Origin: Candidatus Limiplasma sp.
GTDB taxonomy: Bacteria > Bacillota > Clostridia > Christensenellales > Aristaeellaceae
Direction: 5' to 3'
Assembly: GCA_035353615.1 (NCBI GenBank)
Contig: DAOPZY010000007.1
Location: 20,373-84,372, forward strand
DNA: 64,000 nt
The notes beneath the pieces were generated by a model, which was not told where the DNA came from, did no database searches, and saw only the letters and a program-made list of their open reading frames with translations. The translations under genes and the position numbers were made by a program. Below, one piece after another: positions 11,731 through 30,831 of the stretch (the stretch's first letter is position 1; each line of letters starts with the position of its first letter).

Positions 11731-11755
11731 ATCGCGTATGAAAGCAGGTGATGAA

Positions 11756-12601: not shown

Positions 12602-12728
12602 CCGTTGGGCCGGGCCTCGCGCCCCGGCCGCGTTTTCGCGGCGCGCTTTGCCGCCGCGGGCGGGTTATCCCCCTGCCAAAGGGCCTCACATTTCCCGCCG
12701 GAGGGCGGCATCAAAGGAGGTTGTTCCC

Positions 12729-13996: not shown

Positions 13997-14011
13997 AGTA
14001 AGCTTGCCGGG

Positions 14012-14039
14012 TTGCCCAAAACGCCTTTCATGGTATAAT
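14012..14039 (+). promoter_or_regulatory. Candidate promoter for the ABC exporter pair
   Basis: TTGCCC, a 16-nt spacer, then TGgTATAAT extended -10 (14031-14039). Confidence 0.5.
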
Positions 14040-14072
14040 CAAGTCGCAATCCATTTTTTCGGAGGCACGGTT

Positions 14073-15812
14073 TTGAAAAAACTACTGGTATATTTGCGGG
14101 ACTACCGCAAGGAAAGCATTTTAGGCCCGCTGTTCAAGATGCTGGAAGCGGCGTTTGAGCTGCTGGTGCCGCTGGTGATGGCGGCGATGATCGATCACGG
14201 CATCGCGCAGCGCGACACGGGCTATCTGGTGCGGATGGGGCTTTTGCTGGTGGGGCTGGGGGCGCTGGGGCTCACTTCGTCGGCAACGGCGCAGTATTTT
14301 GCCGCCAAGGCGGCCACCGGCTTTGGCCTTCAGGTGCGCCACGCGCTGTTTGAGCATATCCAGAGCCTTTCGTATGCGGAGTTGGATACGCTGGGCGCTT
14401 CGACCCTGACCACAAGGATGACCAGCGATATGAATCAGGCGCAAAACGGCGTGAACATGACGCTGCGCCTGCTGTTGCGCTCCCCCTTCATTGTATTTGG
14501 CGCCATGGCGATGGCTTTCACCATCAACACGCCGGCGGCATTAACCTTTGCCGTGGCGATCCCCGTGCTTTCGGTGGTTGTGTTTGGCATTATCCTGTGG
14601 TGCATTCCGCTGTACCAAAAGGTGCAGGCCCGTCTGGACCGCGTGCTGGTGAGCACCCGCGAAAGCCTGACCGGCGCGCGCGTGCTGCGCGCCTTTTGCA
14701 AGGAAGAGGAGCAGATGGGCGAGTTCAGCGCGCGCAACGCCGAGCTGACCCGGCTGCAAAAGTATGTGGGCCGCATATCCGCGCTGATGAACCCCTTAAC
14801 CTACGTCATCATCAATTTGGCGATTCTTTGGCTGATCTGGACGGGCGCGTGGCAGGTGGAGGCGGGCATCCTGACGCAGGGGGCGCTGGTGGCGCTGTAT
14901 AACTACATGTCGCAAATTCTGGTGGAGCTGATTAAGCTGGCCAACCTGATTGTGACCATTACGCGCGCGGTGGCGTGCGGCAACCGCATACAGGCGGTGC
15001 TGGACATTCAGCCTTCCCAGCGGTGGGCGGCGGAAGCGCCGCAGGCCGTGCCCGGGGCGGCGGCCATCGAGCTGAACGGCGTCGGCCTGCGCTACCCCGG
15101 CGCGGCGGAAACCGCGCTTACGGGCGTAACGCTGAGCATTCCGCGCGGGCAAACGGTGGGGATCATCGGCGGCACCGGCTCGGGCAAAACCTCGCTGGTG
15201 AACCTGATCCCCCGGTTTTACGACGCGACCGACGGCGCCGTGAAGGTGAACGGCGCAGATGTGAAGGACTACCCCAAAGACGATCTGCGGCAGAGGATTG
15301 GCGTTGTGCCTCAGCAGGCGGCGCTGTTTCAGGGCACCCTGCGCGAAAACCTGCGCTGGGGCCGGGCGGACGCGACGGACGCCGACCTGTGGGAAGCGCT
15401 CGCCGTGGCGCAGGCCGCGGACGTGGCGCAGGATAAGGGCGGGCTGGATTTTGCGGTGGAGCCAAACGGGCGCAACCTCTCCGGCGGCCAGCGCCAACGG
15501 CTGACCCTTGCCCGGGCGCTGGTGCGAAAGCCGGAAATCCTGATTTTGGACGACAGCGCCTCGGCGCTGGATTACGCGACGGACGCGGCGCTTCGCCGGG
15601 CCATCCGGGAACTGCCGGACAAACCGACGGTGCTGATCGTTTCGCAGCGGGCGGCCTCCATTCAGCATGCCGACTGCATTGTGGTGCTGGATGACGGCAA
15701 CGTGGTTGGCGTGGGCAACAGCGAAACGCTTTTGCAAACCTGCGATGTGTACCGTGAAATTTACGAATCCCAGTTTCCCAGGGAGGAGGCGGTAACGGAT
15801 GCGCGCGCATGA
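14073..15812 (+). CDS. ABC exporter, fused permease/ATPase subunit (multidrug/lipid type)
   Basis: Six N-terminal TM helices. Walker A GGTGSGKTS, signature LSGGQRQR, Walker B ILILDD. The start is probably TTG 14073 after GGAGG; the track ATG at 14004 is possible. Confidence 0.9.
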   Translation: MKKLLVYLRDYRKESILGPLFKMLEAAFELLVPLVMAAMIDHGIAQRDTGYLVRMGLLLVGLGALGLTSSATAQYFAAKAATGFGLQVRHALFEHIQSLSYAELDTLGASTLTTRMTSDMNQAQNGVNMTLRLLLRSPFIVFGAMAMAFTINTPAALTFAVAIPVLSVVVFGIILWCIPLYQKVQARLDRVLVSTRESLTGARVLRAFCKEEEQMGEFSARNAELTRLQKYVGRISALMNPLTYVIINLAILWLIWTGAWQVEAGILTQGALVALYNYMSQILVELIKLANLIVTITRAVACGNRIQAVLDIQPSQRWAAEAPQAVPGAAAIELNGVGLRYPGAAETALTGVTLSIPRGQTVGIIGGTGSGKTSLVNLIPRFYDATDGAVKVNGADVKDYPKDDLRQRIGVVPQQAALFQGTLRENLRWGRADATDADLWEALAVAQAADVAQDKGGLDFAVEPNGRNLSGGQRQRLTLARALVRKPEILILDDSASALDYATDAALRRAIRELPDKPTVLIVSQRAASIQHADCIVVLDDGNVVGVGNSETLLQTCDVYREIYESQFPREEAVTDARA

Positions 15813-17565
15813 CCAACCCCGAAAGCCCCGTACGGCCACCCTCCGGCGGGTGCTGCTCGCGGTGCGGCGGTATTGGCCGCTACTGATCGCCTCCGGCGCG
15901 CTGGCCGCGGCGACCGTCGCCCTCACGTTGTATGTGCCCATACTGATTGGCGCGGCAATCGACGGCATTGTCGGGCCGGCTCAGGTGGATTTTCAGGCCG
16001 TGCTGCAAAAGCTGTGGACCATCGGCATCATCGTAGGCGTTACGGCGGCGCTGCAATGGATCATGAACACCGTTAATAACCGCGTCACCTATCAGGTGGT
16101 GCGCGACATCCGCCGGCAGGCGTTTGAAAAAATTCAGATTCTCCCGCTCCAATATATCGACGGGCACCCGACCGGGGAAACCGTGAGCCGCGTGATCGCG
16201 GATGTCGATCAGTTTGCCGACGGGCTGCTCATGGGCTTTTCGCAGCTGTTTACCGGCGTTATCACCATCCTTTCCACGCTGGCGTTCATGGTGTCGCTTC
16301 AGTGGCAAATCGCGCTGGTTGTGTTCCTGATTACGCCGCTTTCGCTGTTTGTGGCGCGGCTGATCGCGCGCAAAACCTACGCGATGTTCCGCCTGCAATC
16401 CGAAACCCGGGGCGAGCAGACCGCGCTGATCGACGAAATGGTGGTTCACCAAAAGGTGGTGCAGGCGTTTGGCCACGAGCAGGCCGCGCTGAACCGCTTT
16501 GACGAAATCAACGGCAGGCTGGCGCACTGTTCGCTCCGCGCCACGTTTTTTTCTTCGCTGACGTTCCCAACCATGCGCTTTATCAACGCCGTTGTGTACG
16601 CGGGCGTGGGGTTGGTGGGCGCGCTTACGGTGGTGGCGACGGGCGGCGCGTTTTCCGTGGGGCGGCTTTCTGTGTTTTTAAGCTACGCCAACCAGTACAA
16701 CAAGCCTTTCAACGAAATATCGGGCGTTATTACGGAACTGCAAAACGCGCTGGCCTGCGCCGGGCGCGTGTTTGAGCTGATCGACCAGCCCGCGCAACCC
16801 GCCGACGCAAGCGACGCGGAAACCCTGACCGATGTGCGCGGCCAGGTGGATGCGGAGGATGTTCGCTTTTCCTACACGCCGGATCGGCGGCTGATCGACG
16901 GCTTTACCCTGCACGTGGAGCCGGGGCGGCGGGTGGCGATCGTCGGCCCCACGGGCTGCGGAAAAACCACCCTGATTAACCTGCTGATGCGTTTTTACGA
17001 TGTGGACGGGGGCAGCATCCGCGTGGACGGGCACGACATCGGCCGCGTAACCCGGAAAAGCCTGCGCGAAAGCTACGGGATGGTGTTACAGGATACATGG
17101 CTGAAAACCGGCACGATCCGCGAAAACCTGCTGATGGGAAAGCCTTCCGCAACCGAGGCAGAAATGATTGCCGCAGCAAAAGCCAGCCATGCGCACAGCT
17201 TTATCAAACGCCTGCCCAAGGGGTATGATACCCAAATCGGCGAGGATGGCGGGAGCCTTTCGGAAGGGCAAAAGCAGCTGCTCTGCATCGCGCGCGTGAT
17301 GCTTTGCTTGCCGCCGATGCTGATTTTGGACGAGGCGACCTCCTCCATCGACACCCGAACGGAACGGAAAATTCAGGACGCGTTCGCCCGCCTGATGCAG
17401 GGCCGTACCAGCTTCATTGTGGCGCACCGGCTTTCGACCATCCGGGAAGCGGATGTGATTTTGGTGATGCGCAACGGCAACATTGTGGAGCAGGGCACCC
17501 ATGAGGCGCTGTTGCAGCAGAACGGTTTTTACGCGCAGCTGTACCGCAGCCAGTTTGCGGCGTAG
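15799..17565 (+). CDS. ABC exporter, fused permease/ATPase subunit (partner of the preceding gene)
   Basis: 588 aa, overlapping the upstream gene by 14 nt. Walker A GPTGCGKTT, signature LSEGQKQL, Walker B LILDEATSSID. Typical heterodimeric exporter arrangement. Confidence 0.9.
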   Translation: MRAHDQPRKPRTATLRRVLLAVRRYWPLLIASGALAAATVALTLYVPILIGAAIDGIVGPAQVDFQAVLQKLWTIGIIVGVTAALQWIMNTVNNRVTYQVVRDIRRQAFEKIQILPLQYIDGHPTGETVSRVIADVDQFADGLLMGFSQLFTGVITILSTLAFMVSLQWQIALVVFLITPLSLFVARLIARKTYAMFRLQSETRGEQTALIDEMVVHQKVVQAFGHEQAALNRFDEINGRLAHCSLRATFFSSLTFPTMRFINAVVYAGVGLVGALTVVATGGAFSVGRLSVFLSYANQYNKPFNEISGVITELQNALACAGRVFELIDQPAQPADASDAETLTDVRGQVDAEDVRFSYTPDRRLIDGFTLHVEPGRRVAIVGPTGCGKTTLINLLMRFYDVDGGSIRVDGHDIGRVTRKSLRESYGMVLQDTWLKTGTIRENLLMGKPSATEAEMIAAAKASHAHSFIKRLPKGYDTQIGEDGGSLSEGQKQLLCIARVMLCLPPMLILDEATSSIDTRTERKIQDAFARLMQGRTSFIVAHRLSTIREADVILVMRNGNIVEQGTHEALLQQNGFYAQLYRSQFAA

Positions 17566-17701
17566 GCGGCTCAGCCGGGCGGCGGCGTAAAACCCTGCCA
17601 TCGGGCAGCCGCCTTCTTTCCCAAGCGTGAAAGGAAAAACACACGTCTGGCGCGAATAGGGTACCGTAATGGGAACAGACCGTTGGAAAGGAGCGACCGG
17701 C

Positions 17702-19849
17702 ATGCAAAAAAAAGCGTCAGCTTCACGGATGATTCGCGCCGCCCTTGAAAAAGCGCGCGCGGCATTCCGCGCCCCGGCGCTCAAACGGATTGCGCTTGGC
17801 GCGGTGTGCGTGTGCGCATGCGCCGTGCTCACCGGCTGCGCCGCGCTGCAAAGCCTGACGGCCGCTTTGCCGGCGCAAACGCAGGCGAGCTCAGGCCCCA
17901 ACCTTGATTTGCTCGCCCTGCCCGCCTATGAGGATCAGGAGGGCGGCGAAAGCGCGGCCAGCGACGGCGGCACAGCCTACGGCGCGGTGGATTTGTGGCT
18001 GGACGCGACCCAAAACGCCGGGGGCATCAGCGCGCTGACCACAAGCATGTATCCCCATGCGGGTAAAAAGTACCGCGAAGGCGGTTTCCATTACCGGTAC
18101 GGCACGCAAACCGGATGGTATGAAAGCCTGCTGCGCGATTTTCTCACCGCGGCCGGCGATACGCGCGTGCGAACCCTGCGCAACGGAAACGAAACCTTCC
18201 CGGAGGGCGTTCTGGAAGGGTTCGGCCTCGCGGCGGCGGACGCGGAAGCCGGCGCTTCGCTGTGGCGCGATCTGCACACCTGCGCCGTGGATACGCAGGC
18301 GGGGCTTTTCAGCCAGTTTTCCGCGGAGGAAATGGCCAACAGCTTTTACAGCCTTGGCTCCGCGGTATGGAACAACCGTTTGAACGGGCTGGACACCCAG
18401 TTGCTTGAGAACTCGACGCTTTCCGGCGCGATGAGCGCCGCCCTGACCGCGCAGACGGAGGCGATTGCGGCCGGCGACGCGGGCTATGTGCTGGCTGCCG
18501 GGAGCGATGGTCAACAGTGCGCGTTTTATAACGCTTTGGAAAATCTGGACCCCGAAAGGCTCAGCATCATCACGGTGGACCCTGCCTCGGTGCGCAAGGT
18601 GAGCGGCTCGGACGCGGACGGTCAGCCCGTCGCGTGGTACGAGCAGGCGCTGCGGGAACGCGGCGTGTTTGACCGGGGGCTATGCGTGGGCGTGCTGGAT
18701 TTTACGCTGGACTATCTGGGCCAGATGTCCAGCGTGGGCATAGCGGACCTCAGCGAGCCGCTCGTTTGGGGACGCGTGATTTTGGATGAAAAAAAGCAGA
18801 CCTTTGAAAACCTGGGCGTGATGCCCCGGCAGATGCTCACGTTTGTGATTGGTTCCAAAACCATGGTGAACGGCTTTATCCAGCGCCTGAAGGATACCAT
18901 TGACGCGGACCGCTCTCTGCGCGGCCTGCGCGGCCCGCAAAACGGCGAGCTTACCTATACGGCCAACGGCCAAACGGTTACGCAGCAGCCGTTTTCGTTC
19001 AGCTGGCAGGCGACGGTGATCGCCCGCCCCGGCATGGGGTATTATACGCAGCACACCGAAGGGACGGCCTTCGCCGAGGTTTCATCGGCGGCGCAGGCGG
19101 AGGAAACCGCTGCCGCCACAGGAGCCGACGGTTTGCCGCTTTTTACCCTCGTCAGTAGCGCGGACGGGAGCCTGCCGGATTACACGCTCAAGATCCGCTT
19201 TCCCATCGCAACCAGCGATGACGGGGCCAAACTGGATGTGAGCAAGCTCAGCGGCGCGAGCGTAGACACGCTCAGCACACTTTTGCTGACCCAAACGCTT
19301 GCCAACACCGCCGCAAACCGCGAAACTGCGCCGGCGGGCGCGCAGGTGATACCGTACCGGGACAAGCTGTATGTGTTTGAATCGGGAAAGGCGGACGGCG
19401 CTTTTACGCTGGCCGGCGTCGAGCAGGTGGGGGACGAGCTGGTCTGCTCCGTGCAGGCGAACGGCAAAGCGTTGCAGACCGGGTATTACCGCCTGCGCCT
19501 GTCCGCGGATGTAACAGCCGATCAGGTGACGTGGGAACAGGTGCCGTGGATTGACGGCGAGGACAGCCTGAGCGTCTCCATAACCGACGCCGACGCGTAT
19601 GCGTGGGAAACCTTCACCGCCGCGATGACCGAATACGACCGGGACGCCAAGGGGATCCCCAAGATGTTCCAGCACGCGTGGGGAAGCTACACGGATAAGC
19701 TGTACCACGGTTTGCGGGTGCCGGATTTTCCGCCGGTGTACAAGGCGTTTGCGCTGCGGGAGCTGACCGGGCAGGTCCGCGCGGCCGCTGCTTCGGACAC
19801 CAGCCCGCTGATCCGCTGCGCGTTTGAAGTGTTTGTGCCCGGCCGGTAA
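17702..19849 (+). CDS. Large predicted lipoprotein, function unknown
   Basis: 715 aa from ATG 17702, with AAAGGAG 8 nt upstream. It has a positively charged N-region, a hydrophobic core IALGAVCVCACAVL and the lipobox LTG-C. I recognise no catalytic motif. Confidence 0.7.
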   Translation: MQKKASASRMIRAALEKARAAFRAPALKRIALGAVCVCACAVLTGCAALQSLTAALPAQTQASSGPNLDLLALPAYEDQEGGESAASDGGTAYGAVDLWLDATQNAGGISALTTSMYPHAGKKYREGGFHYRYGTQTGWYESLLRDFLTAAGDTRVRTLRNGNETFPEGVLEGFGLAAADAEAGASLWRDLHTCAVDTQAGLFSQFSAEEMANSFYSLGSAVWNNRLNGLDTQLLENSTLSGAMSAALTAQTEAIAAGDAGYVLAAGSDGQQCAFYNALENLDPERLSIITVDPASVRKVSGSDADGQPVAWYEQALRERGVFDRGLCVGVLDFTLDYLGQMSSVGIADLSEPLVWGRVILDEKKQTFENLGVMPRQMLTFVIGSKTMVNGFIQRLKDTIDADRSLRGLRGPQNGELTYTANGQTVTQQPFSFSWQATVIARPGMGYYTQHTEGTAFAEVSSAAQAEETAAATGADGLPLFTLVSSADGSLPDYTLKIRFPIATSDDGAKLDVSKLSGASVDTLSTLLLTQTLANTAANRETAPAGAQVIPYRDKLYVFESGKADGAFTLAGVEQVGDELVCSVQANGKALQTGYYRLRLSADVTADQVTWEQVPWIDGEDSLSVSITDADAYAWETFTAAMTEYDRDAKGIPKMFQHAWGSYTDKLYHGLRVPDFPPVYKAFALRELTGQVRAAAASDTSPLIRCAFEVFVPGR

Positions 19850-19915
19850 CGCGCCCTCCTTGCGCCGCGCCGGATGCCCCTTACCCTCGCCATCCTGTGA
19901 GAAAGGATCGCCGCC

Positions 19916-20542
19916 ATGCCGAACAAACTGTTCTTCCGCATCCCAACCCACAACCGCACCAAGGTATTGCTGTGCTACCTGCTGGCATGGGGGGTAGCGT
20001 TGCTGTTGCCCTATCTGGGGCTGACGCGGCTGTACCCGTATAAACTGGCAGGCTCCGCGCCGGAAGTGTCCCAGAGCGTGCTCAGCCTGCCGTTGGCGTT
20101 GCCCGGCACGGTCAAAGAATTGCTTACCGCCGCGCAGTTCTCCTCGGACATGAGCCCTGCAGCGCTCAGCGTGGCAATCGCGGCCCGCGACCGGCTGTGG
20201 CGTTACGCGGTGGCCGGGGTGATGGCGCTGGCGGCGCTTTTAAGCCTGCTGTGGCAACTGCTGTGGCGCGTTCGATACCGCAGACCCAAACAGGCGGCCC
20301 GGGCAGCCATGAGGGCCGTTATGGACTATCATCTGTCCATGGCGGGGATTATCGCGCTGAACGCGCTTATGGCGTTGGCGCTGTACCTGCTGGGCGTGCG
20401 GTGGATCGGCGGGCGCACCGTGTGGGATTATCTGGTGTATTTCAGCGGCTTTGTGCTCAACCCCCTCGCGGCGATGGTCTGTTTTCGGCTGGCCGCGCCC
20501 CCGGCCATATCGGGCAAACACGGGTTTTTCAGGCGGCTGTAA
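19916..20542 (+). CDS. Small integral membrane protein (about 4 TM helices), function unknown
   Basis: 208 aa with hydrophobic segments VLLCYLLAWGVALLLPYLGL, YAVAGVMALAALLSLLWQLLW, MAGIIALNALMALALYLLGV and YLVYFSGFVLNPLAAMVCF. Same strand, 66 nt after the lipoprotein gene. Confidence 0.6.
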   Translation: MPNKLFFRIPTHNRTKVLLCYLLAWGVALLLPYLGLTRLYPYKLAGSAPEVSQSVLSLPLALPGTVKELLTAAQFSSDMSPAALSVAIAARDRLWRYAVAGVMALAALLSLLWQLLWRVRYRRPKQAARAAMRAVMDYHLSMAGIIALNALMALALYLLGVRWIGGRTVWDYLVYFSGFVLNPLAAMVCFRLAAPPAISGKHGFFRRL

Positions 20543-20649
20543 CGTTGTGCGGAAGCGCGCGCCGAAACGGGGGTTTCCGCTGTGCCTTGCGCACGGAAAC
20601 GCCGGCGGCAGGCGGCTCGCTTTCTGATCCTTGACCGACAGGAGGCCCT

Positions 20650-22755
20650 ATGTCCAACTATCTGCTTGCCATTGGCGGCACCGGCAACAAAATTCTGGAG
20701 GCGCTTGTCTATGCCTGCGCGGCGGACGCCCTCTATACCCTGGATGAAGATCGCCGCCCGGTTCCGCTTGCGGAGGTGCGGGCGCTGATTGTGGATGTGG
20801 ACGCAGCCTGCGGCAACACCACCCGCGCCAAGCAGGCAGCCGAACATTACGAGGCTGTGCGCGGGGCTTTCGCCGCGTCGCGCGTGCCTCATCGGGGCTT
20901 TCATACGGCGCTGAGCGTGGAGCGCTGGAACATGAACCTTGCCAAGCGCGCAAGCTCGGTCGCGGGCATTACGCAAAACCACCGGCGGGATCGCCTGCTT
21001 GCGGACAGCCTTTTTTCCCGCACAGAGGCCGAGCTGGAATACAGCGAAGGGTTTCGGGGGCATCCGGACCTTGGCGTGCTTTTTTTTGCGGATTTGCTCA
21101 ACAATCTGGACGCGTTGGCCGCCGAGGGCCAGCCAGACGAGATGGTCACGCTGCTTAAAACGATTCGCGCGGAGCTGGACGCGGGCGAAACCGTGTCGGT
21201 GATGCTGGCGGGGTCCATATTCGGCGGCACGGGCGCGAGCGGCATCCCCAGCATTTCCCGCTTTCTGCGGGAACGCTTTCGGGACCGCGCGGACCGGTTT
21301 GTGCTTTCGGCGGTGCTGATGCTGCCTTACTATGAGGTGCCGCCCGCCACCGCCGACGAAACGATGGAAATCGTCGTCAAATCCTCAGCGTTTTTGGACA
21401 AGGCCCGCACAGCCCTGCAATATTACGGCATGGAAGGAATGATCCGCGCCGGGGAGGACGACGCGCGCGGCGTGTACGACGCGCTCTACCTGCTGGGCCT
21501 GCCCCGGGAGGCGTTTGTGACCCAGCGCATCTACTCCACAGGCTCGCAAAGCCAGGAAAACGACGCGCACCTGCTGGAATGGCTGGCCGTGCGCTGCGCC
21601 GCGCAGTTTTACCGCACGGGTTTCCGCGGGGCGGACGCGCACAACATCGACTGCTATTATTACCAGTGGCACAGCCGCGATGTGTCCTGGGATTGTTTTG
21701 ACGCGGAAAGCGCCCTGTACAAAAACGCCTACGGCGGGCTGATGAAAAGCGCCGCGCTGTTTTTTGCCGAGTGTTACCCCACGCTGCGCGCCTGCATCCG
21801 GGAGGAAGCCAAACGCGAAGCCCGCACCGTGAATTACTGGACCGCCTATTTTTATGACGCGCGCCGGTTAAACGGCGCTCAGCGCGCCCAGCTGGAAAAA
21901 CTGATCGACTCGCTGTACCGGCTTTTCGCGTTTTACGCCAATTGGATGTGGCAGGTATTGCGCACGCTTCCGCCAACCCTTCGCCCGGAAAAACCGGGCG
22001 AGGCGGACGCGCGGGCGCTGGCGGAGCTGTACACCCGCCTGATTGACGCGCGCGGCGTGTTAGCCCAGTACGAAACCGCGCCCGCCGCCCACACCGCCGC
22101 GGAAGCGGAAACCTTGCAGGGCGAGGCGGCTGCTTTGGGCGAACAGCTCAACCGGCAGATCGTAACCGCCGGGGGGCACGCGTACCTCACGGCGGTCAAG
22201 GCGGAAAAAACGCGGCGCGCCGGGCAGCTGGAAAGCCAGCGGCAGGCGCTGCGCGAGCAGGAGGAGCGCATAGCTCTTTGGGAAGGGGAGGACGCGCGCT
22301 ATATGGACCCGCAAACCCTCCAGCAGGAAAAAGCCCGTTATGAAGCCATGCAGCGGGCTTACGCCGGCATGGCGGACCGGCTTTCGCTGGTGCAGGAGGA
22401 CGAAATGCGCGCCGTGGAGCGCCGCGTGGCCGATACGCCCGCGCTGGCGACCGATCTGGAATTGCCGGATAACGGGCTGTTTGAGCCGGAAGCGCTTAAT
22501 GCCCTGCACGAGTTGCTCACCCTGTACGGCGCGGGGGAAGAAGCGCGCGATATGCGGGCCGTGGAGGCCCTGCGAAAAACCCTGTGGGAGCGCCTGCACC
22601 GCCTGATTGCCCAACGCGTGCCCGATCGCCTGACGGCGGTGCAGGCCGTCGCGGGCATGGGCGGCGGCAACCGGATGGGCGAAGGCCCGCAGGCCGCGTT
22701 TGCAAGCTTTACGGCGGCTTTGCTGGCAGCCGTTGTGGAGGAGGAAAACCCATGA
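20650..22755 (+). CDS. Divergent tubulin/FtsZ-superfamily GTPase-like protein with C-terminal coiled coil
   Basis: 701 aa with RBS AGGAGG. It has an N-terminal glycine loop LLAIGGTGNKILEAL (T1-like), then GFRGHPDLG, then SIFGGTGASGIPS at residues ~188-200 (T4 tubulin-signature-like; nt 21211-21246). Residues ~470-600 are E/R/Q/A/L-rich heptad-like helix. Confidence 0.65.
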   Translation: MSNYLLAIGGTGNKILEALVYACAADALYTLDEDRRPVPLAEVRALIVDVDAACGNTTRAKQAAEHYEAVRGAFAASRVPHRGFHTALSVERWNMNLAKRASSVAGITQNHRRDRLLADSLFSRTEAELEYSEGFRGHPDLGVLFFADLLNNLDALAAEGQPDEMVTLLKTIRAELDAGETVSVMLAGSIFGGTGASGIPSISRFLRERFRDRADRFVLSAVLMLPYYEVPPATADETMEIVVKSSAFLDKARTALQYYGMEGMIRAGEDDARGVYDALYLLGLPREAFVTQRIYSTGSQSQENDAHLLEWLAVRCAAQFYRTGFRGADAHNIDCYYYQWHSRDVSWDCFDAESALYKNAYGGLMKSAALFFAECYPTLRACIREEAKREARTVNYWTAYFYDARRLNGAQRAQLEKLIDSLYRLFAFYANWMWQVLRTLPPTLRPEKPGEADARALAELYTRLIDARGVLAQYETAPAAHTAAEAETLQGEAAALGEQLNRQIVTAGGHAYLTAVKAEKTRRAGQLESQRQALREQEERIALWEGEDARYMDPQTLQQEKARYEAMQRAYAGMADRLSLVQEDEMRAVERRVADTPALATDLELPDNGLFEPEALNALHELLTLYGAGEEARDMRAVEALRKTLWERLHRLIAQRVPDRLTAVQAVAGMGGGNRMGEGPQAAFASFTAALLAAVVEEENP

Positions 22756-25700
22756 AGCGTAACCGCAAAGATGAGCGCAAAGCGGAGCTGGACCGCAATA
22801 CCTCCTACCTCACGCTGCTGCCGACGATGGACGAAGGCTTTCATACCGGGTACCAGACCCGCGCGGGCGTGGTGAGCGATGGAAACCAGAAGCCCCACGA
22901 GTGGCTGGAAAGCGTCGCCCGCAACCTGCTGACCCCGGGGGAGGACGTCGGTTACGCCATCCCGGATGTGCTGGCGGGGGAAGCCCAGCTTCGCCGCCTG
23001 ATGCGCCTACCCTTTGAGGACGCGATGCGCCATCAGGAGATGCTGGATTGGCGCGGCGCGCTAGCAACCTTGCTGCTGTGGGACGGTTGGGCGCAGGACG
23101 ACACCTGGCCCCAGCTGGCTTGCGAAAACATGCTGGACGGCGAAAGCGGCGATTTTATCAAAAGCGTGCGGGCCGCTCTGCCGGCCGGCCGCGAAAAGTT
23201 TGGGCTGTGGCTGTTTACCCTGTCGGTGGAGCGGGACGGCGTGCCGGAACGCAAGGCGATCGGCATGCTCTCGCCCACGGTCGCGCTGGCGCCCGCGGCG
23301 AACCCCGGCGACCTTTCCTCGCTGCTGCCGGAGTGCGTGCGGTGGTACAACCGCAAGCGCAAACGATTTGAGGACCCCTGTTCCTGGCTTGGCGAGGCGG
23401 ACCGCGCCCGGCTGGTGCAGCGGTTGCGCTATTTACAGGCCCTCAACGAGCGCGCGGAACTGAAAAGCGTGCTGTATGCGGCCGACGCTTCGCTATGCGG
23501 GTTGCTCGACCATTTTGTGAGCGATTTGATGGCGCGGCGCGGGTCGTGGCGGGAAAGGCTGGAAGCCGGGGACCCCCGTGCCGAGCGCGAGCTGTACATC
23601 CGCACGCTGGCGGTGTACGGGCTGGGTGAAATCAGCGTTTTACCGGGGCTGACCCGGCGCGATGATCCGCTTTCACTTTCAGAGCTTGCGCAAAACCCGC
23701 TGCTGGCGCGCCTCGCGCCCACAAACACCGTAGCGCCCGCCGAGCTGGGCGGCGCGAGCGCGGTCACCTACAGCTATCAGGGCAAAGCGTTTGCCATGGA
23801 AAGCCCGCTGTACCTTCTGGAGCCGGCCAACGCGCCCGAGGAAATGGACACGCTGCGCCAACTGTGGCAGGAGCTGAGCCTGCCCGCCCAGTTTGACGGG
23901 GAGTGGAACCGCCAGATTGCCCGCCGTTTTCTGGCGTTGGCCAACCGGCTGACCGGTCGGCTGGGAGCCAGCCGCAAGGTGATCGCCATGCTCCGGGAAT
24001 GGAGCCAGCGCCACGCGGCCTACCGGGAATCGGGCGACCGCTCCGTGGCGTTTCAGCTGCCCCTGAAGGACGCGCCCGCCACGCTGGCCGGCCTGAGCGC
24101 GGAAATGATCGGCCTGACCGACCCCAGCGTGCTGACCGGCGCGTTTTCAGACTGTCTTTTGCTGTGCGAGGGCGTGATGCCTTTCCATTTGCCGGTGCTG
24201 AACGATCGCTGCGCCGTGCGCGGCGCTGAAAACCTCTACGCCGTGCCGCCCATCAGCTCCGCGCTGGCGCTGTGGCTTTCCGAAACCGCCGGCGACGCGC
24301 AGGAGGATTACTTCCGCCCGACGCTGCCTGAGGACGCGTTTGCCTTTGAGGCGTTTGAAGATGAAGAAGGCCGCAAGGTGCGGGCGCATATGCGCCTGAC
24401 CCGCCGCCGCCGGGCGGAGGGCGCGGCGTTCCAGAACCGTATTGAGCTGACGCGCGTGTACCGGATGGGCGCGGAATTTGCGGAGGGGATGGCGGTGCCC
24501 GTCGCCGCGCGTGAATTGCCCACCGTGCGCTTTTGGCCGGCCGCTCGCCTCGCCGCGGGGCAGTGGAGCGCGTACTACGTGCTGTCCCAAAAACCGGACG
24601 CAGTGGATGTGGCGGTGCCCACCGGGAATGGGTGGGCGCAGGGCGAACCGCGCCGCGCCGTGGACGACAGTGAGCGCAGCACGCCGACGGAACGCCGCTG
24701 GCAAATAGCCCGCACCGAGCGCTGGCCGTTGTATGTGGGGCTGATGCGCGGCAAGCTGTGCCTGGGCGCGCTGCCCAACGACGAGCCGCTTTCTCAGTTG
24801 AAACGCGAAGGCCCCGCCGCCGTGGCCATCGACTTTGGCTCCAATGCCACCACGGTGATGATGCGTCAGGGCGAACATATCCGGCCTGCGGCGCTATCCC
24901 CCAGGTTGCTGAAAACGCTTTTGCAGGGGCGCTCCGGGGATGATCTGCTCCTGCCGGACGAGCTGTTGCCGGCCGTAACCTATCAGGACGAGGCGCGCCC
25001 CTCCACGTTTGGCAGCGTGATGGACCTGTTTGGCGATGATGAAGAAAAATGGAACGCGCCGCTGATTGACGGGCATATTTACTACCCGCGCGATCTGGCT
25101 TCGCTTTTGCGCAAAAACCCCAATACGCTGTACTATGACCTGAAATGGGGCGACGAGTCTTATCAGGTGCGCTGTTTACGCCTGTTTATCAAGCAAACCA
25201 TGCTGCAAGCCTCGCTGGCGGCGCGGCTGAGCGGTTCCCCTTCGGTGAGCTGGCGGGTGTCCATGCCCAACGCCATGCCCCTGCCCCGGCAGGAAGCCTA
25301 TCTGGAAACGGTGCGCGGCCTCGCGCGGGAGGTGGCTGCCGAAACCGGAATGCCGCTGACCCAGGGTGTGCCCGCGGCGCTTTTTGCCAGTGAGAACCAG
25401 GCGGATGGCCTCTATTTCCGCCGCCGTAACGAGGTGAACGCCCGCAGCGGCTACCTGAACATGGATGTGGGCGGCGGCACCACCGACCTGAGCGTGTGGC
25501 TGGGCGGCGCTCCATTTGCGACGCTGGAAACCTCGCTGCTGCTGGGTTGCCGGCAAATCCTGTTCGAATCGCTGAGCGCGCGCCACCGCGACGAGTTCGA
25601 AGCGGATTTTGCCCGCGCGGAGGATGGGTTGAAAAACCTTGTGCGGGATTTGACGCGCGCGTTTGCGCGCGGCGACGCCTCCCTTCGGGCGCGCCAGAAG

Positions 25701-26393
25701 AATGTGTTTTTGCTGGACGCTTTTTTTGCCGGATATGGCGAGAGCGTCGCGGCCATGATGGCGCAGGCGCGCGCGCAGGGTCGCGTGAGCCTGCTGGAAA
25801 GCCTGCTTTTGCTCAATTTTGGGTTTCTGTTCCGGCTGTGCGGAGAAATGCTGGACCGTTGCGACCGGGCGGAGGAAAGCCGGGCGCAGTTGCGCCCGCG
25901 CATGGAAATCTGCGTTGCGGGCAACGGCGGGCAATTCCTGAAGTATTTTGACGAGGACGCGCGCAATAAGCTGTTCCGGCTGGCGCTTTCGGGGCTGAAC
26001 CCGCGCCACCCGGTGCAGGAACTGTTGCTGGTGCAAAGCCGCCACCCGAAACAGGAGGTGGCGATTGGTCTTTTAGCGGACGACAGCCGCCTGCGAAGCT
26101 CCGTGCAGGGCACAGAAGCGATCAGCCCCGCGCAGGCGGCGGCCGCCGATCCGGACAAACGCCGCCACTTGCTCAGGGAATACCTGCTGGCGTTTTACGC
26201 CGCGTTTCCGCAGGCGGGGGAAAAGCTGATGGGCAACGCCTTTGACCCGGAGGGCGGCGCGCGCCTTGTGCGCCTGAAGCCCGCCGCGGAAATTGAGCTG
26301 GAAGCGATTTTGGATAACGAGTTGAGCGAGGGCGACGAGTTTTCCGGCTACGTGCGCGCCTTTGCCGGCATGAAGCGTTTGTGGGGCATCTGA
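22752..26393 (+). CDS. Giant protein with a C-terminal actin/Hsp70-like (ASKHA) ATPase core; N-terminal ~690 aa unassigned
   Basis: 1213 aa from ATG 22752, preceded by GGAGGAGGA. An ATGA overlap with the upstream stop implies translational coupling. The track start at 22584 would overlap the upstream gene by 170 nt. Phosphate-1 is AVAIDFGSNATTV (nt ~24822-24857), phosphate-2 is NMDVGGGTTDLSVW (~25458-25500) and the adenosine motif is ICVAGNGGQFL (~25906-25945). Confidence 0.7.
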   Translation: MKRNRKDERKAELDRNTSYLTLLPTMDEGFHTGYQTRAGVVSDGNQKPHEWLESVARNLLTPGEDVGYAIPDVLAGEAQLRRLMRLPFEDAMRHQEMLDWRGALATLLLWDGWAQDDTWPQLACENMLDGESGDFIKSVRAALPAGREKFGLWLFTLSVERDGVPERKAIGMLSPTVALAPAANPGDLSSLLPECVRWYNRKRKRFEDPCSWLGEADRARLVQRLRYLQALNERAELKSVLYAADASLCGLLDHFVSDLMARRGSWRERLEAGDPRAERELYIRTLAVYGLGEISVLPGLTRRDDPLSLSELAQNPLLARLAPTNTVAPAELGGASAVTYSYQGKAFAMESPLYLLEPANAPEEMDTLRQLWQELSLPAQFDGEWNRQIARRFLALANRLTGRLGASRKVIAMLREWSQRHAAYRESGDRSVAFQLPLKDAPATLAGLSAEMIGLTDPSVLTGAFSDCLLLCEGVMPFHLPVLNDRCAVRGAENLYAVPPISSALALWLSETAGDAQEDYFRPTLPEDAFAFEAFEDEEGRKVRAHMRLTRRRRAEGAAFQNRIELTRVYRMGAEFAEGMAVPVAARELPTVRFWPAARLAAGQWSAYYVLSQKPDAVDVAVPTGNGWAQGEPRRAVDDSERSTPTERRWQIARTERWPLYVGLMRGKLCLGALPNDEPLSQLKREGPAAVAIDFGSNATTVMMRQGEHIRPAALSPRLLKTLLQGRSGDDLLLPDELLPAVTYQDEARPSTFGSVMDLFGDDEEKWNAPLIDGHIYYPRDLASLLRKNPNTLYYDLKWGDESYQVRCLRLFIKQTMLQASLAARLSGSPSVSWRVSMPNAMPLPRQEAYLETVRGLAREVAAETGMPLTQGVPAALFASENQADGLYFRRRNEVNARSGYLNMDVGGGTTDLSVWLGGAPFATLETSLLLGCRQILFESLSARHRDEFEADFARAEDGLKNLVRDLTRAFARGDASLRARQKNVFLLDAFFAGYGESVAAMMAQARAQGRVSLLESLLLLNFGFLFRLCGEMLDRCDRAEESRAQLRPRMEICVAGNGGQFLKYFDEDARNKLFRLALSGLNPRHPVQELLLVQSRHPKQEVAIGLLADDSRLRSSVQGTEAISPAQAAAADPDKRRHLLREYLLAFYAAFPQAGEKLMGNAFDPEGGARLVRLKPAAEIELEAILDNELSEGDEFSGYVRAFAGMKRLWGI

Positions 26394-26849: not shown

Positions 26850-27551
26850 TTACGCCTTTTCCAACCCAAGCGCCAGCCGGGCGGCTTTTTCGGCGTGCAC
26901 AACCGTGGTGTCTAAAAGCGGCACCGGCGTATCCGTTTGGCTTACCAGCATGCCGATTTCGGTGCAGCCGAGGATCGCGGCCTGCGCGCCCGCGTCCGCC
27001 ATGCGCCGGATCACCCGGAGGTAGGCTTCCCTGCTCTGCGGCAGCACACGGCCAAAGCAAAGCTCGTCAAAGATCACGCGGTGCAGCATCTCGCGCTCCT
27101 CCGGCGTGGGGATATCCACCTGAAGGCCGCGCGCGCGGAGGCGTTCCCGGTAAAAATCCTGCTCCATGGTGTAGCGCGTGCCCAGCAGCGCCACGCGGGC
27201 GTAGCCGGCGGCGAGCGCTGCGTCGGCGGTCGCGTCCGCAATGTGGATGAAAGGCACGCGGATCGCTTCTTCAATTTGCGCGCAGCTTTTGTGCATGGTG
27301 TTGGTGCCCAGCAGCACAAAATCCGCCCCGCCGCATTCCAGCCGCCGGGCCGCGTCCGCGAGCAGCTCGCCCACGGCTGTCCAATCCTCCTTGCGCTGCT
27401 CGGCCTCCACCTCGGCAAAGTCTACGCTGTACAGCAATATCTTTGCGCTGTGGTACCCCCCCAGCGCCCCGTTTACGCGCTCGTTGACAATCCGGTAATA
27501 CGTTTGGGTGCTTTCCCAGCTCATGCCGCCGATGAGTCCAATGGTTTTCAT
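26850..27551 (-). CDS. Aspartate/glutamate racemase family protein (aspartate racemase-like)
   Basis: 233 aa from ATG 27551 (RBS GGAGGG). N-terminus MKTIGLIGGMSWEST and the second catalytic Cys motif ILGCTEIGML. The track N-terminal extension is not supported. Confidence 0.85.
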   Translation of the reverse strand: MKTIGLIGGMSWESTQTYYRIVNERVNGALGGYHSAKILLYSVDFAEVEAEQRKEDWTAVGELLADAARRLECGGADFVLLGTNTMHKSCAQIEEAIRVPFIHIADATADAALAAGYARVALLGTRYTMEQDFYRERLRARGLQVDIPTPEEREMLHRVIFDELCFGRVLPQSREAYLRVIRRMADAGAQAAILGCTEIGMLVSQTDTPVPLLDTTVVHAEKAARLALGLEKA

Positions 27552-27619
27552 GCGCAACCCTCCCTGTTGGTAAATTGCAGGGATTGTACAGCGAAACCCG
27601 CGCCGCGTCAAGAGGGATG

Positions 27620-27648
27620 TTTGACAAACCGCCCCCCGCATGGTATCC
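27620..27648 (+). promoter_or_regulatory. Candidate promoter for the GT2/membrane-protein pair
   Basis: Perfect -35 TTGACA (27620-27625), a 17-nt spacer, then TGgTATCCT (27640-27648). Confidence 0.5.
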
Positions 27649-27699
27649 TTTGGCTGATTGTTCCGCCTGTTCAAAAAACGCGCTTCGGAGGCGTTACCG

Positions 27700-28638
27700 A
27701 TGAAAATTGCCGTTCTGGTGCCCTGCTATAACGAGGCGAAAACCGTTGCCCGCGTGGTAACGGACTACCGCGCCGCGCTGCCCGAGGCCGATATCTACGT
27801 GTATGACAACAACTCCACCGACGGCACCGACGAAATCGCGCGCGCCGCCGGGGCGATTGTGCGCTACGAACGGCGGCAGGGCAAAGGCAACGTGATCCGC
27901 ACCATGTTTCGGGAAATTGACGCCGACGCCTACCTGATGATCGACGGCGACGATACCTACGCCGCCGACAACGCGCGCGAAATGGTGGAGCTGGTGCTGA
28001 ACCGCAAAGTGGATATGGTGGTGGGCGACCGGCTCAGCTCCACCTACTTTACGGAAAACAAGCGGCCTTTCCACAATTTTGGCAACACGCTGGTGCGCTC
28101 GCTGGTCAACCGGATTTTTAAGGGCAACATTGCCGACCTGATGACCGGATACCGCGCGTTCAGCTACCAGTTTGTCAAATCGTTCCCCGTGCTTTCCAAG
28201 GGGTTTGAAATCGAAACGGAAATGAGCATCCACGCGCTGGACAAAAACCTTTCCATCCAGAGCGTGCCCGTGGGTTATAAAGACCGCCCCGCCGACAGCC
28301 CCAGCAAGCTGAACACCTACACCGACGGCTTTAAGGTGCTGCGCACCGTGGCGCGCCTGTACAAGGAATACCGGCCGATGTCATTTTTCGGGATTTTTAC
28401 GCTGGTTTTCGCGCTGGCGGGGGGGGTTTTGTTCCTGCCCGTTCTGGCGGAATACCTGCGCACGGGGCTTGTGCCGCGTTTTCCGACGCTGATTGTTTCC
28501 GGCGTGCTGATGACGCTGGCCATCCTGATGCTCGTCTGCGGCCTGATTTTGGATACGGTGGCCAAAAAGCACCGGCAGCTGTTTGAAGTCAACCTGAACA
28601 TTCTCCGGCTGCTGCACGGGCGTTCCGACCCGCGCTGA
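27700..28638 (+). CDS. Family 2 glycosyltransferase, polyprenol-phosphate sugar synthase type (GtrB/CsbB-like)
   Basis: 312 aa from ATG 27700 (RBS GGAGG). Motifs VLVPCYNEAKTV and a DxD (IDGDDTY), plus two C-terminal TM helices. Confidence 0.85.
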   Translation: MKIAVLVPCYNEAKTVARVVTDYRAALPEADIYVYDNNSTDGTDEIARAAGAIVRYERRQGKGNVIRTMFREIDADAYLMIDGDDTYAADNAREMVELVLNRKVDMVVGDRLSSTYFTENKRPFHNFGNTLVRSLVNRIFKGNIADLMTGYRAFSYQFVKSFPVLSKGFEIETEMSIHALDKNLSIQSVPVGYKDRPADSPSKLNTYTDGFKVLRTVARLYKEYRPMSFFGIFTLVFALAGGVLFLPVLAEYLRTGLVPRFPTLIVSGVLMTLAILMLVCGLILDTVAKKHRQLFEVNLNILRLLHGRSDPR

Positions 28639-28668: not shown

Positions 28669-30831
28669 ATGCCAGCAAAACAAACCCTGACCCTCCATCG
28701 GTTTTTGCGCCTGGCGGGCTGTGTGCTCGCGGGCGCGTTGTGTATGCTTGCCTTTACGGTGCCGCCCGAAGGGTATGTGGGCATCAGCGACCCGCCCCTG
28801 AGGGCCGGCAGCACGGTTTGGTGCCTGTACGCCGCCGCGCTGGCCGGGCTTTTTTGGCTGTATACCGGCAAACGCCGGGCGCGGCTTTCCGCCGGCATGA
28901 TGCTGACCGGGCTTTTATTTGGCGCGGTCAACTTTCTGGCGACCACGCTTTTTGCCTATGATACCTGGGACACGCTCGCTTCCGCGCCCGCCTTGATCCG
29001 CGCGGCGCTGTGCGTATTGGGGCAGGCCGCCGTGATGGCGGCGGGCCTTGCGCTGGTGTGCGAGTGGCTGGAGGGCGTTTGGGACAGCCGGGACAAGCGC
29101 CCGTCGGTAGCCTTTGCGCACGCCCGGCCGGACGCTCCGGCAGGCCATGCGCAAAGCAGTGCGGATTGCCTTCCTGCGGACGCAAGCGATGATTGGAACG
29201 CTGAGCCGGACGCGGCGCATATGGCAACCCCGGCGATGGATTTGCCGCTTCCTGTTATGGAACCGACGGGTGATTCAAGCCCAGCGGGGCGTGTTGCGGA
29301 TTGCCTTCCTGCGGACGCAAGCGATGCCTTGAACGCTGAGCCGGATGCGGCGCGCGCTGTGACCCCGGATCGGTTTGGGCTGCGGCGGCGGTATAGGCGG
29401 CTTGCCGATCGCTTCCCGAGGCTGGACGCGTGGCGCAGACGCCATCCAGTGGCCAGCGTGGCGTTGCTGCTGCTGGTTTGCTGGTCGCCATACCTGATCG
29501 TTTTTTACCCCGGCACCATCATTTGGGATATGGGCGAAATGCTTGGCATGCTCTACGGCCTGCGGCCCATGACCACGTGGCACCCGGTGTTTGCCACATG
29601 GCTGTTCGGGGGCGCGGTGGCGCTGGGCCGGCTGTTTGGCAGCGACAACCTGGGCGCGTTTCTGTTTACGGCGCTCCAAAGCGTCGCCATGGCCTACGCG
29701 CTGGCGAGGGTTATTCGACTGCTTCGAAAATTTGGGCTGGGGCCGGGCTGGCGACTGGCGGCGCTTGCGCTTTTCGGGCTGACGCCGATTTTTGGCTCGT
29801 TCGCTCAGGCGGTGGGCAAGGACACGCTTTATACGGCGGCCATTTTGATGGTCACGGTGTACACGGTGGAAACGCTACGCTTCGGCGCGCCGCGCGGCAG
29901 GGCGCTGATGGGTTATGCAGCGTGGACCCTGCTGGCCTGCCTTGTGCGCAATAACGGGCTGTACGTGGCGGCCGGCGCGGCGGCGCTGGTGGTCGCGTTT
30001 GGTCTGCGGGGCCGCGCAAGGCTGCGGGTAGGCGGCGCGCTGGCGGCGGCGCTCGGGCTGGCCATCGGCTTTTCCGGCGTGCTGGTGCCCGCGCTTGGCA
30101 TCCGGGACGCCACGGCCTCGGGCCTGTACTCGGTTTGTTTTCAGCAAAGCGCGCGGGTGTTGCGCGACCACGCTGATACCGTGACCCCGGAAGAATATGC
30201 CGAAATTGACCTTGTTTTGGACGCGAAAAACCTGCCGACGCTCTACGAACCGGTGATTTCCGACCCGGTCAAGTATACCTTCCGGCAATACGGCGAAGGC
30301 CGCGAAGCCGAAACGGCGGCCCTGACCCGGTACCGCCAAACCTGGCTTTCGATGCTGCGCAAATATCCGCTCACCTATTTGGAAGCGTTTGTGGCGGGCA
30401 ACAGCGGCTATTATGCCTTTACCCCGAAAATTGACGCGGCCCGCACCTACAACCAGCAGGGCGGGATCCGTTTTGTGTTTGAAACCTACGAGCTGGGCGC
30501 GGACGCGCGCTACCTGCATACCACGCAAATTGAGGCGCTGAAAACCGCGCGCACGCTGCTGGCGGCCTATTCCCGCGGGTGGCGGCGCGTGCCGGCCTTG
30601 GAGCTTTTCCTGTTTTGCCCGGTGTACACGTGGCTTTTGGTGGCGGCGGGGCTGTCGCTGGCGCGGCGCGGCTATTGGCGGGCGCTGATCGCCTTTGCCC
30701 CGGCCTTGCTGAGCCTTGGCGTGTGCCTGCTGTCGCCGGTGGATGATTATTTCCGCTATTTTTTGCCGATTGTCGCCATGACGCCGCTGCTGTTGGGCCT
30801 TGCGCGCACGGAGAAAAATACGGCCGCGTAA
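28669..30831 (+). CDS. Large polytopic membrane protein, GT-C-like candidate glycosyltransferase
   Basis: 720 aa with more than 10 hydrophobic helices. It has a WSPYLIVFYPGTIIWDMGEMLG...WHPVF region like uncharacterised GT-C/DUF-type membrane glycosyltransferases. It starts 30 nt after the GT2 gene and contains an acidic insert with an internal duplication. Confidence 0.55.
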   Translation: MPAKQTLTLHRFLRLAGCVLAGALCMLAFTVPPEGYVGISDPPLRAGSTVWCLYAAALAGLFWLYTGKRRARLSAGMMLTGLLFGAVNFLATTLFAYDTWDTLASAPALIRAALCVLGQAAVMAAGLALVCEWLEGVWDSRDKRPSVAFAHARPDAPAGHAQSSADCLPADASDDWNAEPDAAHMATPAMDLPLPVMEPTGDSSPAGRVADCLPADASDALNAEPDAARAVTPDRFGLRRRYRRLADRFPRLDAWRRRHPVASVALLLLVCWSPYLIVFYPGTIIWDMGEMLGMLYGLRPMTTWHPVFATWLFGGAVALGRLFGSDNLGAFLFTALQSVAMAYALARVIRLLRKFGLGPGWRLAALALFGLTPIFGSFAQAVGKDTLYTAAILMVTVYTVETLRFGAPRGRALMGYAAWTLLACLVRNNGLYVAAGAAALVVAFGLRGRARLRVGGALAAALGLAIGFSGVLVPALGIRDATASGLYSVCFQQSARVLRDHADTVTPEEYAEIDLVLDAKNLPTLYEPVISDPVKYTFRQYGEGREAETAALTRYRQTWLSMLRKYPLTYLEAFVAGNSGYYAFTPKIDAARTYNQQGGIRFVFETYELGADARYLHTTQIEALKTARTLLAAYSRGWRRVPALELFLFCPVYTWLLVAAGLSLARRGYWRALIAFAPALLSLGVCLLSPVDDYFRYFLPIVAMTPLLLGLARTEKNTAA
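29161..29353 (+). repeat. In-frame intragenic direct duplication (two ~58-nt copies 135 nt apart)
   Basis: gcggattgccttcctgcggacgcaagcgatg...aacgctgagccgga occurs at 29161 and 29296. It encodes ADCLPADASD(D/A)(W/L)NAEPDAA twice, 45 codons apart. Confidence 0.85.

Follow-up and report, generated by a model that had tools for sequence, protein, structure and literature searches.

This study concerns a cluster of four plus-strand genes, g1 to g4, in a 64,000-nucleotide (nt) stretch of DNA from Candidatus Limiplasma sp. (the window), in which a divergent tubulin-like GTPase is encoded together with a giant ATPase whose C-terminal part is modelled as an ASKHA fold, a predicted lipoprotein and a predicted membrane protein. 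From the folds, motifs, synteny, natural fusions and distribution observed for these genes, we infer a membrane-anchored, cytoskeleton-like complex of two nucleoside triphosphatases (NTPases) with a core cell-biological function and an envelope-related role, a reading to which we give a probability of roughly one half. The locus forms a sub-branch of the FtsZl1/Tubulin_2 family, which, in the literature searched, has been known since 2010 by comparative genomics only, with two competing predictions, membrane remodelling and a conflict system; the invariant giant ASKHA partner is caught by no Pfam or NCBIfam model. The first-pass annotation, made from the sequence alone, had drawn attention to these genes. 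Open reading frame (ORF) calling on the window returned all four with the coordinates, gaps and motifs that it had given, and a recheck bore out the 66-nt (g1-g2) and 107-nt (g2-g3) gaps, the ATGA overlap, the lipobox and the four transmembrane segments. The genes are arranged as follows:

17702-19849, + strand: g1, 715 amino acids (aa)
19916-20542, + strand: g2, 208 aa
20650-22755, + strand: g3, 701 aa
22752-26393, + strand: g4, 1213 aa
22752-22755, + strand: ATGA, in which the stop codon of g3 and the start codon of g4 overlap

The g3 product is a divergent protein of the tubulin/FtsZ superfamily, Tubulin_2/FtsZl1-like in type. Taken singly, the window protein scores under the Pfam cut-offs, with 21.2 bits (E 1.9e-4) on Tubulin_2 (PF13809; gathering cut-off 27) and 19.9 bits on Tubulin (PF00091; cut-off 33). 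Its homologues match these models more widely: Tubulin_2 is hit by all 33 that were scanned at E<=0.01 (best 2.6e-8), Tubulin by 17 of the 33 (best E 9.8e-7), and a precomputed PF13809 hit is on record for most homologues in the database. Nothing significant was found for g3 in NCBIfam (one weak row, FtsL, E 0.068) or for its family profile among PDB sequences, and an hhalign comparison of the profile with one canonical Tubulin_2 protein was uninformative. An AlphaFold2 model built on an alignment of 121 sequences (predicted local distance difference test, pLDDT, 87.6; predicted template modelling score 0.86) places a GTPase-type alpha/beta domain at residues 1-345 and long helices, a coiled coil or helical bundle, at residues 347-700. 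The top 50 Foldseek matches of this model in the PDB are all tubulin or CetZ chains, with probabilities of 0.97-1.00, and the tubulin/FtsZ fold first proposed from two glycine-rich loops thus stands. The loops, and a third conserved segment, lie at these positions:

20671-20691, + strand: T1-type glycine loop IGGTGNK, g3 residues 8-14; G9, G10, T11, G12 and K14 invariant in our alignment A1
21220-21243, + strand: tubulin signature (T4) FGGTGASG, g3 residues 191-198; G192, G193, T194 and G195 invariant in 121 sequences
21517-21570, + strand: loop VTQRIYSTGSQSQENDAH, g3 residues 290-307; nearly invariant across 121 homologues

The last of these (YSTGSQSQENDAH) is acidic and ends in SQENDAH, and within the model pLDDT falls below 50 at no internal segment other than its residues 290-303; it may be a subunit-interface or T7-like loop.

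The g4 product has no Pfam or NCBIfam match. Its best E values against Pfam, NCBIfam and PDB sequences are about 0.4-2 and non-significant, and its profile meets FtsA (E 2.2) and MreB (E 2.4) among PDB sequences, non-significantly and in both cases across the phosphate-2 motif. In the AlphaFold2 model (pLDDT 85.3; first 13 residues omitted, 57 sequences), the C-terminal ~520 residues are an ASKHA fold of the kind seen in the Hsp70 nucleotide-binding domain (NBD) and MreB, as had been read from three motifs in the first-pass annotation. Foldseek recovers 396 PDB matches at E<=1e-3, led by the NBDs of Hsc70, Hsp70 and DnaK (E 2.8e-7, template modelling score (TM-score) on the target 0.43-0.47), with MreB also among the top structural matches (TM-score on the target 0.51); against viral structures the top matches are Hsp70 homologues. 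The structural match to proteins of the FtsA, MreB and ParM type is no better than that to Hsp70. The domains and motifs of g4 are:

22890-24017, + strand: N-terminal domain, residues 47-422; in proteins P0178-P0181 it follows a g3-type tubulin domain in a natural fusion
24816-26390, + strand: ASKHA ATPase domain, ~residues 689-1213
24828-24854, + strand: phosphate-1 motif IDFGSNATT, residues 693-701
25464-25487, + strand: phosphate-2 motif DVGGGTTD, residues 905-912
25914-25931, + strand: adenosine motif VAGNGG, residues 1055-1060

Phosphate-1 (DxG), phosphate-2 (DxGGxT) and adenosine (GxG) motifs are thus all present, in the order correct for ASKHA proteins. Within the clade, D694-F-G-S, D905-V-G-G-G-T-T-D and A1056-G-N-G-G are invariant, and the motif residues are kept in 99-108 of 109 distant full-length relatives (D694 in 104, G696 in 108, D905 in 107, G907 in 108 and G1057 in 107). 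The glycine-loop and phosphate-motif residues to which the first reading had pointed are therefore invariant or nearly so in the homologues. With Hsp70/DnaK NBDs and MreB, g4 shares the fold of ~residues 689-1213 and the three motifs. It differs from them in what surrounds that domain: nothing follows it, so g4 is without the Hsp70 substrate-binding domain, and some 670 N-terminal residues with no detectable relative precede it, of which residues ~47-670 are confidently modelled as alpha/beta and beta-rich domains.

The two NTPase genes are closely coupled. Their 4-nt stop-start overlap, a signal of translational coupling, recurs at 39 of the 53 related loci, and they have been fused in two independent ways. 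In P0178-P0181 (~900 aa) a g3-type GTPase domain and the g4 N-terminal domain form one protein, 39% identical to g3 over residues 1-460 and 45% identical to g4 over residues 47-422; since these proteins are 65-77% identical to one another and have intact GGTG motifs, they appear to be genes maintained under selection. The other fusion, of a whole g3-like part to a g4-like part, is seen among the g4 matches listed, where 22 are proteins of ~1640-1770 aa with the g4-like part starting near residue 650. The g3 profile aligns with the N-terminal region in 10 of them (E 5e-11 to 6e-4), chiefly across the helical half, and the majority of these 10 begin in g3-like fashion with MKSYLL...G. Natural fusions of this kind argue that the g3 and g4 proteins probably touch.

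At locus L003 one of these shorter fusions, a lone 902-aa protein of the tubulin and g4 N-terminal domains (10001-12709), stands directly after the DapF-aminotransferase genes. Because it sits where relatives have the full cluster, this lineage seems to hold a reduced version without the lipoprotein, transmembrane protein, coiled coil and ATPase.

Synteny was followed in a scan of GTDB, one genome per species, with a g4 alignment, which gave 50 loci, all from uncultured Clostridia under such labels as Candidatus Limiplasma, Christensenellaceae and Eubacteriales. The order g1-g2-g3-g4, on whose presence in related genomes the first-pass annotation had made its reading depend, is kept in every one of the 46 loci with enough upstream DNA, the remaining four being cut by contig ends; this synteny, together with the fusions, leads us to reject chance adjacency. 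The identities of the four proteins to those of the window co-vary among species (r = 0.68-0.92), and the cluster diverges in step with its flanking enzymes. Among close relatives it is preceded by the DapF-aminotransferase genes, with or without an ABC exporter pair, and among distant ones by QueH...GT4 (a family 4 glycosyltransferase). Both contexts are represented in the window; since it holds QueH as well as an orthologue of that GT4, the cluster has moved only inside one chromosomal region. In this lineage the locus accordingly looks vertically inherited and not mobile, as judged from sequence comparison. That the window locus stems from a prophage or mobile element was considered and is ruled out by the conserved housekeeping flanks, and no relatives of g4 were found in phage genomes or IMG/VR. 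Vertical inheritance favours an envelope or cell-biological role over defence, without settling the matter. One Limiplasma metagenome-assembled genome (JAZKYW01) holds two divergent copies of the module, L051 and L057, whose g4 proteins are 49% and 40% identical to that of the window.

The four genes had also been taken for a self-contained module. Within the clade their colinearity upholds this; over the wider distribution, the conserved core is the g3-g4 pair with a small protein of four transmembrane segments, and not necessarily all four genes. An exhaustive search of 1.84 billion representatives with the g4 profile returned 1115 relatives at E<=1e-3, counted as 50%-identity clusters, and 195 at E<=1e-30. 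Beyond the clade, the module is also present in further Clostridia and on plasmids of cyanobacteria. A two-gene form, g3-like plus g4-like with a 4-nt overlap, is found at L060 and L066, a four-gene form including a g1-like lipoprotein at L061 and a form with small upstream genes at L065. By tblastn against plasmids, g3 and g4 relatives are adjacent on plasmids of Gloeothece PCC 7822, Picosynechococcus PCC 7003, 73109 and 8807 and Synechococcus NIES-970. The Gloeothece plasmid cluster encodes, in order, a 156-aa protein with four transmembrane segments, a Tubulin_2 protein (E 2e-10), an 1118-aa g4-like protein (g4 profile E 2e-32) and two proteins that combine transmembrane segments with coiled coils. 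Accessory genes around the g3-g4 core differ widely among lineages, and g1 is missing from many clusters that retain the pair.

The most divergent four-gene copy, at L004 (1-23229; also L005), has a g4 that is 31% identical to that of the window. At L061, two genes 3' of the g4-like gene, a 204-aa protein (12580-13194) beginning FFFIADVSSSM has weak Pfam matches to vWA and VWA_CoxE (E 0.006-0.008). In Prevotella sp. oral taxon 299 (NC_022111.1, L063 7923-13043), a 537-aa tubulin-like gene with the motifs GGTGSR and GGTGAAG is followed by an 1158-aa ORF that misses the g4 profile and has DFGTTNT (599) and DIGGGSSD (813) at the spacing of phosphate-1 and phosphate-2 in g4. A similar-looking pair is BACCAC_02057/02058 of B. 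caccae (913 and 1152 aa, 4-nt overlap), which is listed in the supplementary table of PMC2875224, is unremarked there and may represent the same theme.

The remaining two proteins provide the predicted link to the membrane. A hydropathy scan of g2 finds four hydrophobic 19-mers, at residues 15-33, 94-112, 138-156 and 172-190, from which a membrane protein with four transmembrane segments is predicted; neither Pfam nor NCBIfam gave a family match. The small Gloeothece protein occupies the equivalent place, 5' of the tubulin-like gene. Counterparts of g2 are likely in other loci too, and in the Picosynechococcus cluster and at L065 small genes hold the g2 position, an equivalence of size and position only. 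The product of g1 is predicted to be a 715-aa extracytoplasmic lipoprotein with a signal peptide. Its single hydrophobic stretch is N-terminal and leads into a lipobox that conforms to [LVI][ASTVI][GAS]C:

17828-17839, + strand: g1 lipobox LTGC (L-T-G-C, residues 43-46), after a hydrophobic stretch at residues 24-42

Across 29 g1 orthologues, conservation of L43 and C46 is 90% or more, and all retain the signal peptide and the lipobox cysteine. No domain could be attached to the rest of the protein: g1 has no match in Pfam, NCBIfam or PDB sequences (the last also searched with its family profile), Pfam scans of the 29 orthologues gave no domain, and the g1 profile recovered from a set of 5.8 billion proteins close orthologues only, none with a Pfam domain. 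A motif at residues ~96-109 (window 17987-18028), VDLWLDA[ST]Q.(M/A)GGI, has D97, W99, L100, G107 and G108 invariant and, in its VDLWLDA[ST]Q part, resembles the first strand and the start of the metal ion-dependent adhesion site of a vWA domain. The idea that g1 is a divergent vWA protein found no support from hhalign, with a probability of 0.6% against one vWA protein, which as a single comparison is a weak test.

In the complex that we propose, g3 would be an FtsZl1/Tubulin_2-type GTPase whose GTP-binding loops are intact and whose C-terminal half is long and helical. The g4 protein, made in stoichiometric coupling with it, would bind g3 through its novel N-terminal domain (residues 47-422), and its C-terminal Hsp70/actin-fold ATPase would supply a second nucleotide-driven step, either assembly and disassembly or conformational switching, such that GTP and ATP cycles together would drive assembly or switching. 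With its four transmembrane segments, g2 would anchor the pair at the cytoplasmic membrane, and the g1 lipoprotein would be the extracytoplasmic arm. By analogy with FtsZ-FtsA or MreB, the most likely task of such a module would be to organise or regulate an envelope or glycopolymer process.

A role of this kind is suggested by the genes that precede the cluster in two lineages. A GT4 gene lies directly 5' of g1 in 27 species, and Bac_transf, NTP_transferase and epimerase genes lie directly 5' of the fused form in another lineage. The window has an orthologue of the former:

35181-36434, + strand: GT4 glycosyltransferase, 47% identical to the GT4 found directly 5' of g1 in 27 more distant species

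In the window a local rearrangement has parted this gene from the cluster, with QueH (30990-32318) in between; the GT4 is a possible ancestral partner and a candidate for membership of the module. The link to glycopolymers, being lineage-specific, is the weakest step of the proposal. As a general feature of the module, a link to glycan synthesis was rejected, as it is seen in these two lineages only and is missing in five other contexts.

A bolder version of the proposal, which is possible and which we put forward tentatively, is that g3-g4 constitutes a third class of paired tubulin-fold/actin-fold machinery in bacteria, apart from FtsZ-FtsA and plasmid partition. The two proteins would co-assemble on a dedicated anchor of four transmembrane segments into a nucleotide-driven membrane structure, and the family would be ancient and common to Clostridia, Cyanobacteria and possibly Bacteroidota. 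As in FtsA-FtsZ, the gene for a tubulin-fold GTPase adjoins that for an actin-fold ATPase, and the pair is membrane-linked. Here, however, the tubulin-like gene comes first, the order being reversed, and there is no dcw context; g3 is without the FtsZ C-terminal domain, FtsA is a third as large as g4, whose nearest folds are Hsp70 NBDs, and attachment to the membrane would use separate transmembrane and lipoprotein partners instead of an amphipathic helix.

Among known systems, the FtsZl1 gene neighbourhoods are close to the present one. Canonical FtsZl1 proteins are ~1100 aa long, have no recognisable T6-H7-T7 elements or FtsZ C-terminal domain and end in a coiled coil, and at the centre of their gene neighbourhoods are vWA proteins together with Ser/Thr kinases, OmpA-like proteins or a divergent GTPase (Makarova & Koonin 2010, PMC2875224). 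The resemblance extends to several properties of the present system: g3 homologues match Tubulin_2, the N-terminal GTPase part alone is tubulin-like and the C-terminal half helical, neither H7/T7 nor the C-terminal domain of FtsZ can be recognised in g3, the neighbours are membrane-associated and the family is experimentally uncharacterised. Unlike the FtsZl1 neighbourhoods, the window cluster is without a vWA domain, P-loop GTPase or kinase (no vWA, kinase or OmpA Pfam match and no Walker A/P-loop motif in g1-g4), and its invariant partner is the giant ASKHA ATPase, which is not named as a component in PMC2875224.

Several observations weigh against a cytoskeleton-like complex, beginning with the two NTPases themselves. 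The structural match of g3 to tubulin is weak (E about 2e-3, TM-score 0.2-0.35) and its model has no H7-like helix after S6; because of this, and because FtsZl1-type proteins are without T6-H7-T7 and the FtsZ C-terminal domain, polymerisation of g3 is uncertain. For the g4 ATPase the closest structural matches are NBDs of Hsp70, which does not form filaments. In the ~1700-aa fusions, moreover, the tubulin-like part has degenerate GTP motifs, from which it appears that GTPase activity is dispensable in some relatives. These same points lend themselves to another explanation, which we think unlikely, in which g4 would act as a dedicated chaperone or assembly factor of Hsp70 type and g3 as a non-polymerising GTPase switch, the two serving to fold, insert or export g1 or another envelope client through g2 as a secretion or assembly device. 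Such a device would accord with the Hsp70 NBDs at the head of the g4 matches, with the missing filament-building elements of FtsZl1-type proteins (PMC2875224), with the association of the module with membrane and extracytoplasmic proteins and with the ~1700-aa fusions, where the ATPase motifs persist after the GTP motifs were lost. It is difficult to reconcile with a g4 that has no Hsp70 substrate-binding domain, with the lack of DnaJ or GrpE nearby (no HSP70, DnaJ or GrpE Pfam match in the cluster or its flanks) and with the many clusters that keep g3-g4 and have no g1.

The cyanobacterial copies also count against a core chromosomal function, since they lie on plasmids, of 47-253 kb, two of which are mobilizable. 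Tubulin-like TubZ and actin-like ParM/AlfA are plasmid-partition motors, and both folds of the module thus serve plasmid partition elsewhere. That g3-g4 is itself a machine for the segregation or positioning of DNA or plasmids is nevertheless very improbable: the clostridial cluster is chromosomal and includes a lipoprotein and a transmembrane protein, g3 is of the Tubulin_2 type and not TubZ, and ParM is a third to a quarter as large as g4, whose nearest folds are Hsp70 NBDs. No TubR- or ParR-like adaptor gene and no centromere-like repeats were noticed, neither having been specifically searched for.

The main rival is an NTP-dependent conflict or defence system, in logic like those of Kaur, Burroughs, Iyer and Aravind (2020, PMC7159879), which we regard as possible and somewhat doubtful. 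The g1 and g2 proteins would then sense perturbation of the envelope or act as membrane effectors, and a nucleotide-gated g3-g4 assembly would trigger growth arrest or contain an invader. In the published systems one or two TRAFAC-class DO-GTPases and GAP1 form the constant core; tubulin-plus-coiled-coil proteins and HSP70 (DnaK-type, with GrpE and DnaJ) are separate, non-overlapping themes, and both families are predicted to be multimerising parts of conflict systems near the membrane (PMC7159879). The parallel is evident, for tubulin-plus-coiled-coil proteins occur there in Firmicutes, HSP70-fold ATPases occur there too, and membrane-proximal, nucleotide-dependent multimeric assemblies are predicted. 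The surroundings of the module add to it. The L004 copy, alone in having an adjacent vWA gene, has a Peptidase_S8 gene 5'; on its 3' side come genes for a protein of 692 aa, the vWA protein and a Tubulin_2 protein of canonical type (1195 aa, E 5e-51). The g3-g4 module here adjoins an FtsZl1-vWA module, an arrangement reminiscent of the conflict systems predicted in PMC7159879, and this weighs against our reading and leaves room for a conflict role. A recombinase gene adjoins L066 and an integrase gene is near L065, a second, divergent copy is present in some genomes (as with L051 and L057, from a single genome), the accessory genes vary by lineage, and the cyanobacterial clusters are on plasmids, as described above.

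Set against these points, the window cluster has no DO-GTPase, GAP1, FNIII or vWA domain, the absence of GAP1 being read from the missing GTPase partner, and g1-g4 are free of Walker A motifs. Nor does it contain a recognisable effector domain (nuclease, TIR, pore-former or peptidase). Its tubulin-like gene is always paired, and sometimes fused, with an ASKHA protein of 1100-1300 aa that has no substrate-binding domain. None of the four proteins has a significant match in PADLOC, NCBIfam or PHROGs, and the literature searched holds no description of a module of a tubulin-like protein with a giant ASKHA ATPase and no experiments on FtsZl1; the earlier statement that the architecture matches no named system is thereby sustained. 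With no vWA, no DO-GTPase/GAP1 and no PADLOC or PHROG match, the cluster is neither an FtsZl1-vWA neighbourhood nor a DO-GTPase conflict system. The colinearity in 46 of 46 testable species, the conserved housekeeping neighbourhood, the divergence in step with flanking enzymes and the lack of phage or IMG/VR copies likewise argue against a conflict role.

With regard to the envelope-related role of the proposed NTPase complex, two further facts stand on the unfavourable side. The glycosyltransferase association is lineage-specific, with none at L060, L061, L065, L066 or the cyanobacterial clusters, and in the window itself the GT4 is some 9 kb from the cluster. No member of the family has been studied experimentally, and the function that we suggest is deduced from sequence.

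If the third-class proposal is true, it would give a first functional handle on the uncharacterised FtsZl1/Tubulin_2 family. The ~670 unmatched N-terminal residues of g4 would define a new protein family, with ~1100 g4 clusters at 50% identity, and the pairing of two filament-forming folds offers a testable hypothesis, that of a two-NTPase complex on an anchor of four transmembrane segments. The window organism is an uncultured gut or digester clostridium; homologous clusters exist in the cultured cyanobacteria Picosynechococcus PCC 7003, 73109 and 8807 and Gloeothece PCC 7822, which we assume to be genetically tractable.

In the window, the G+C content is even throughout the region, and a scan for promoters and terminators gave a number of sites not above that in shuffled sequence. 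A ribosome-binding site precedes the first gene:

17688-17693, + strand: Shine-Dalgarno sequence AAGGAG, 8 nt 5' of the g1 ATG at 17702

On the 5' side, Pfam identifies two ABC_membrane+ABC_tran exporters (14004-17565), and on the 3' side a convergent Asp/Glu racemase (26850-27674, - strand). Beyond the racemase lie genes for a GT2 glycosyltransferase (27658-28638) and for a membrane protein with DUF6020 (28669-30831), and the racemase/GT2/DUF6020 trio is kept 3' of the cluster in the close relatives L013, L014 and L018.

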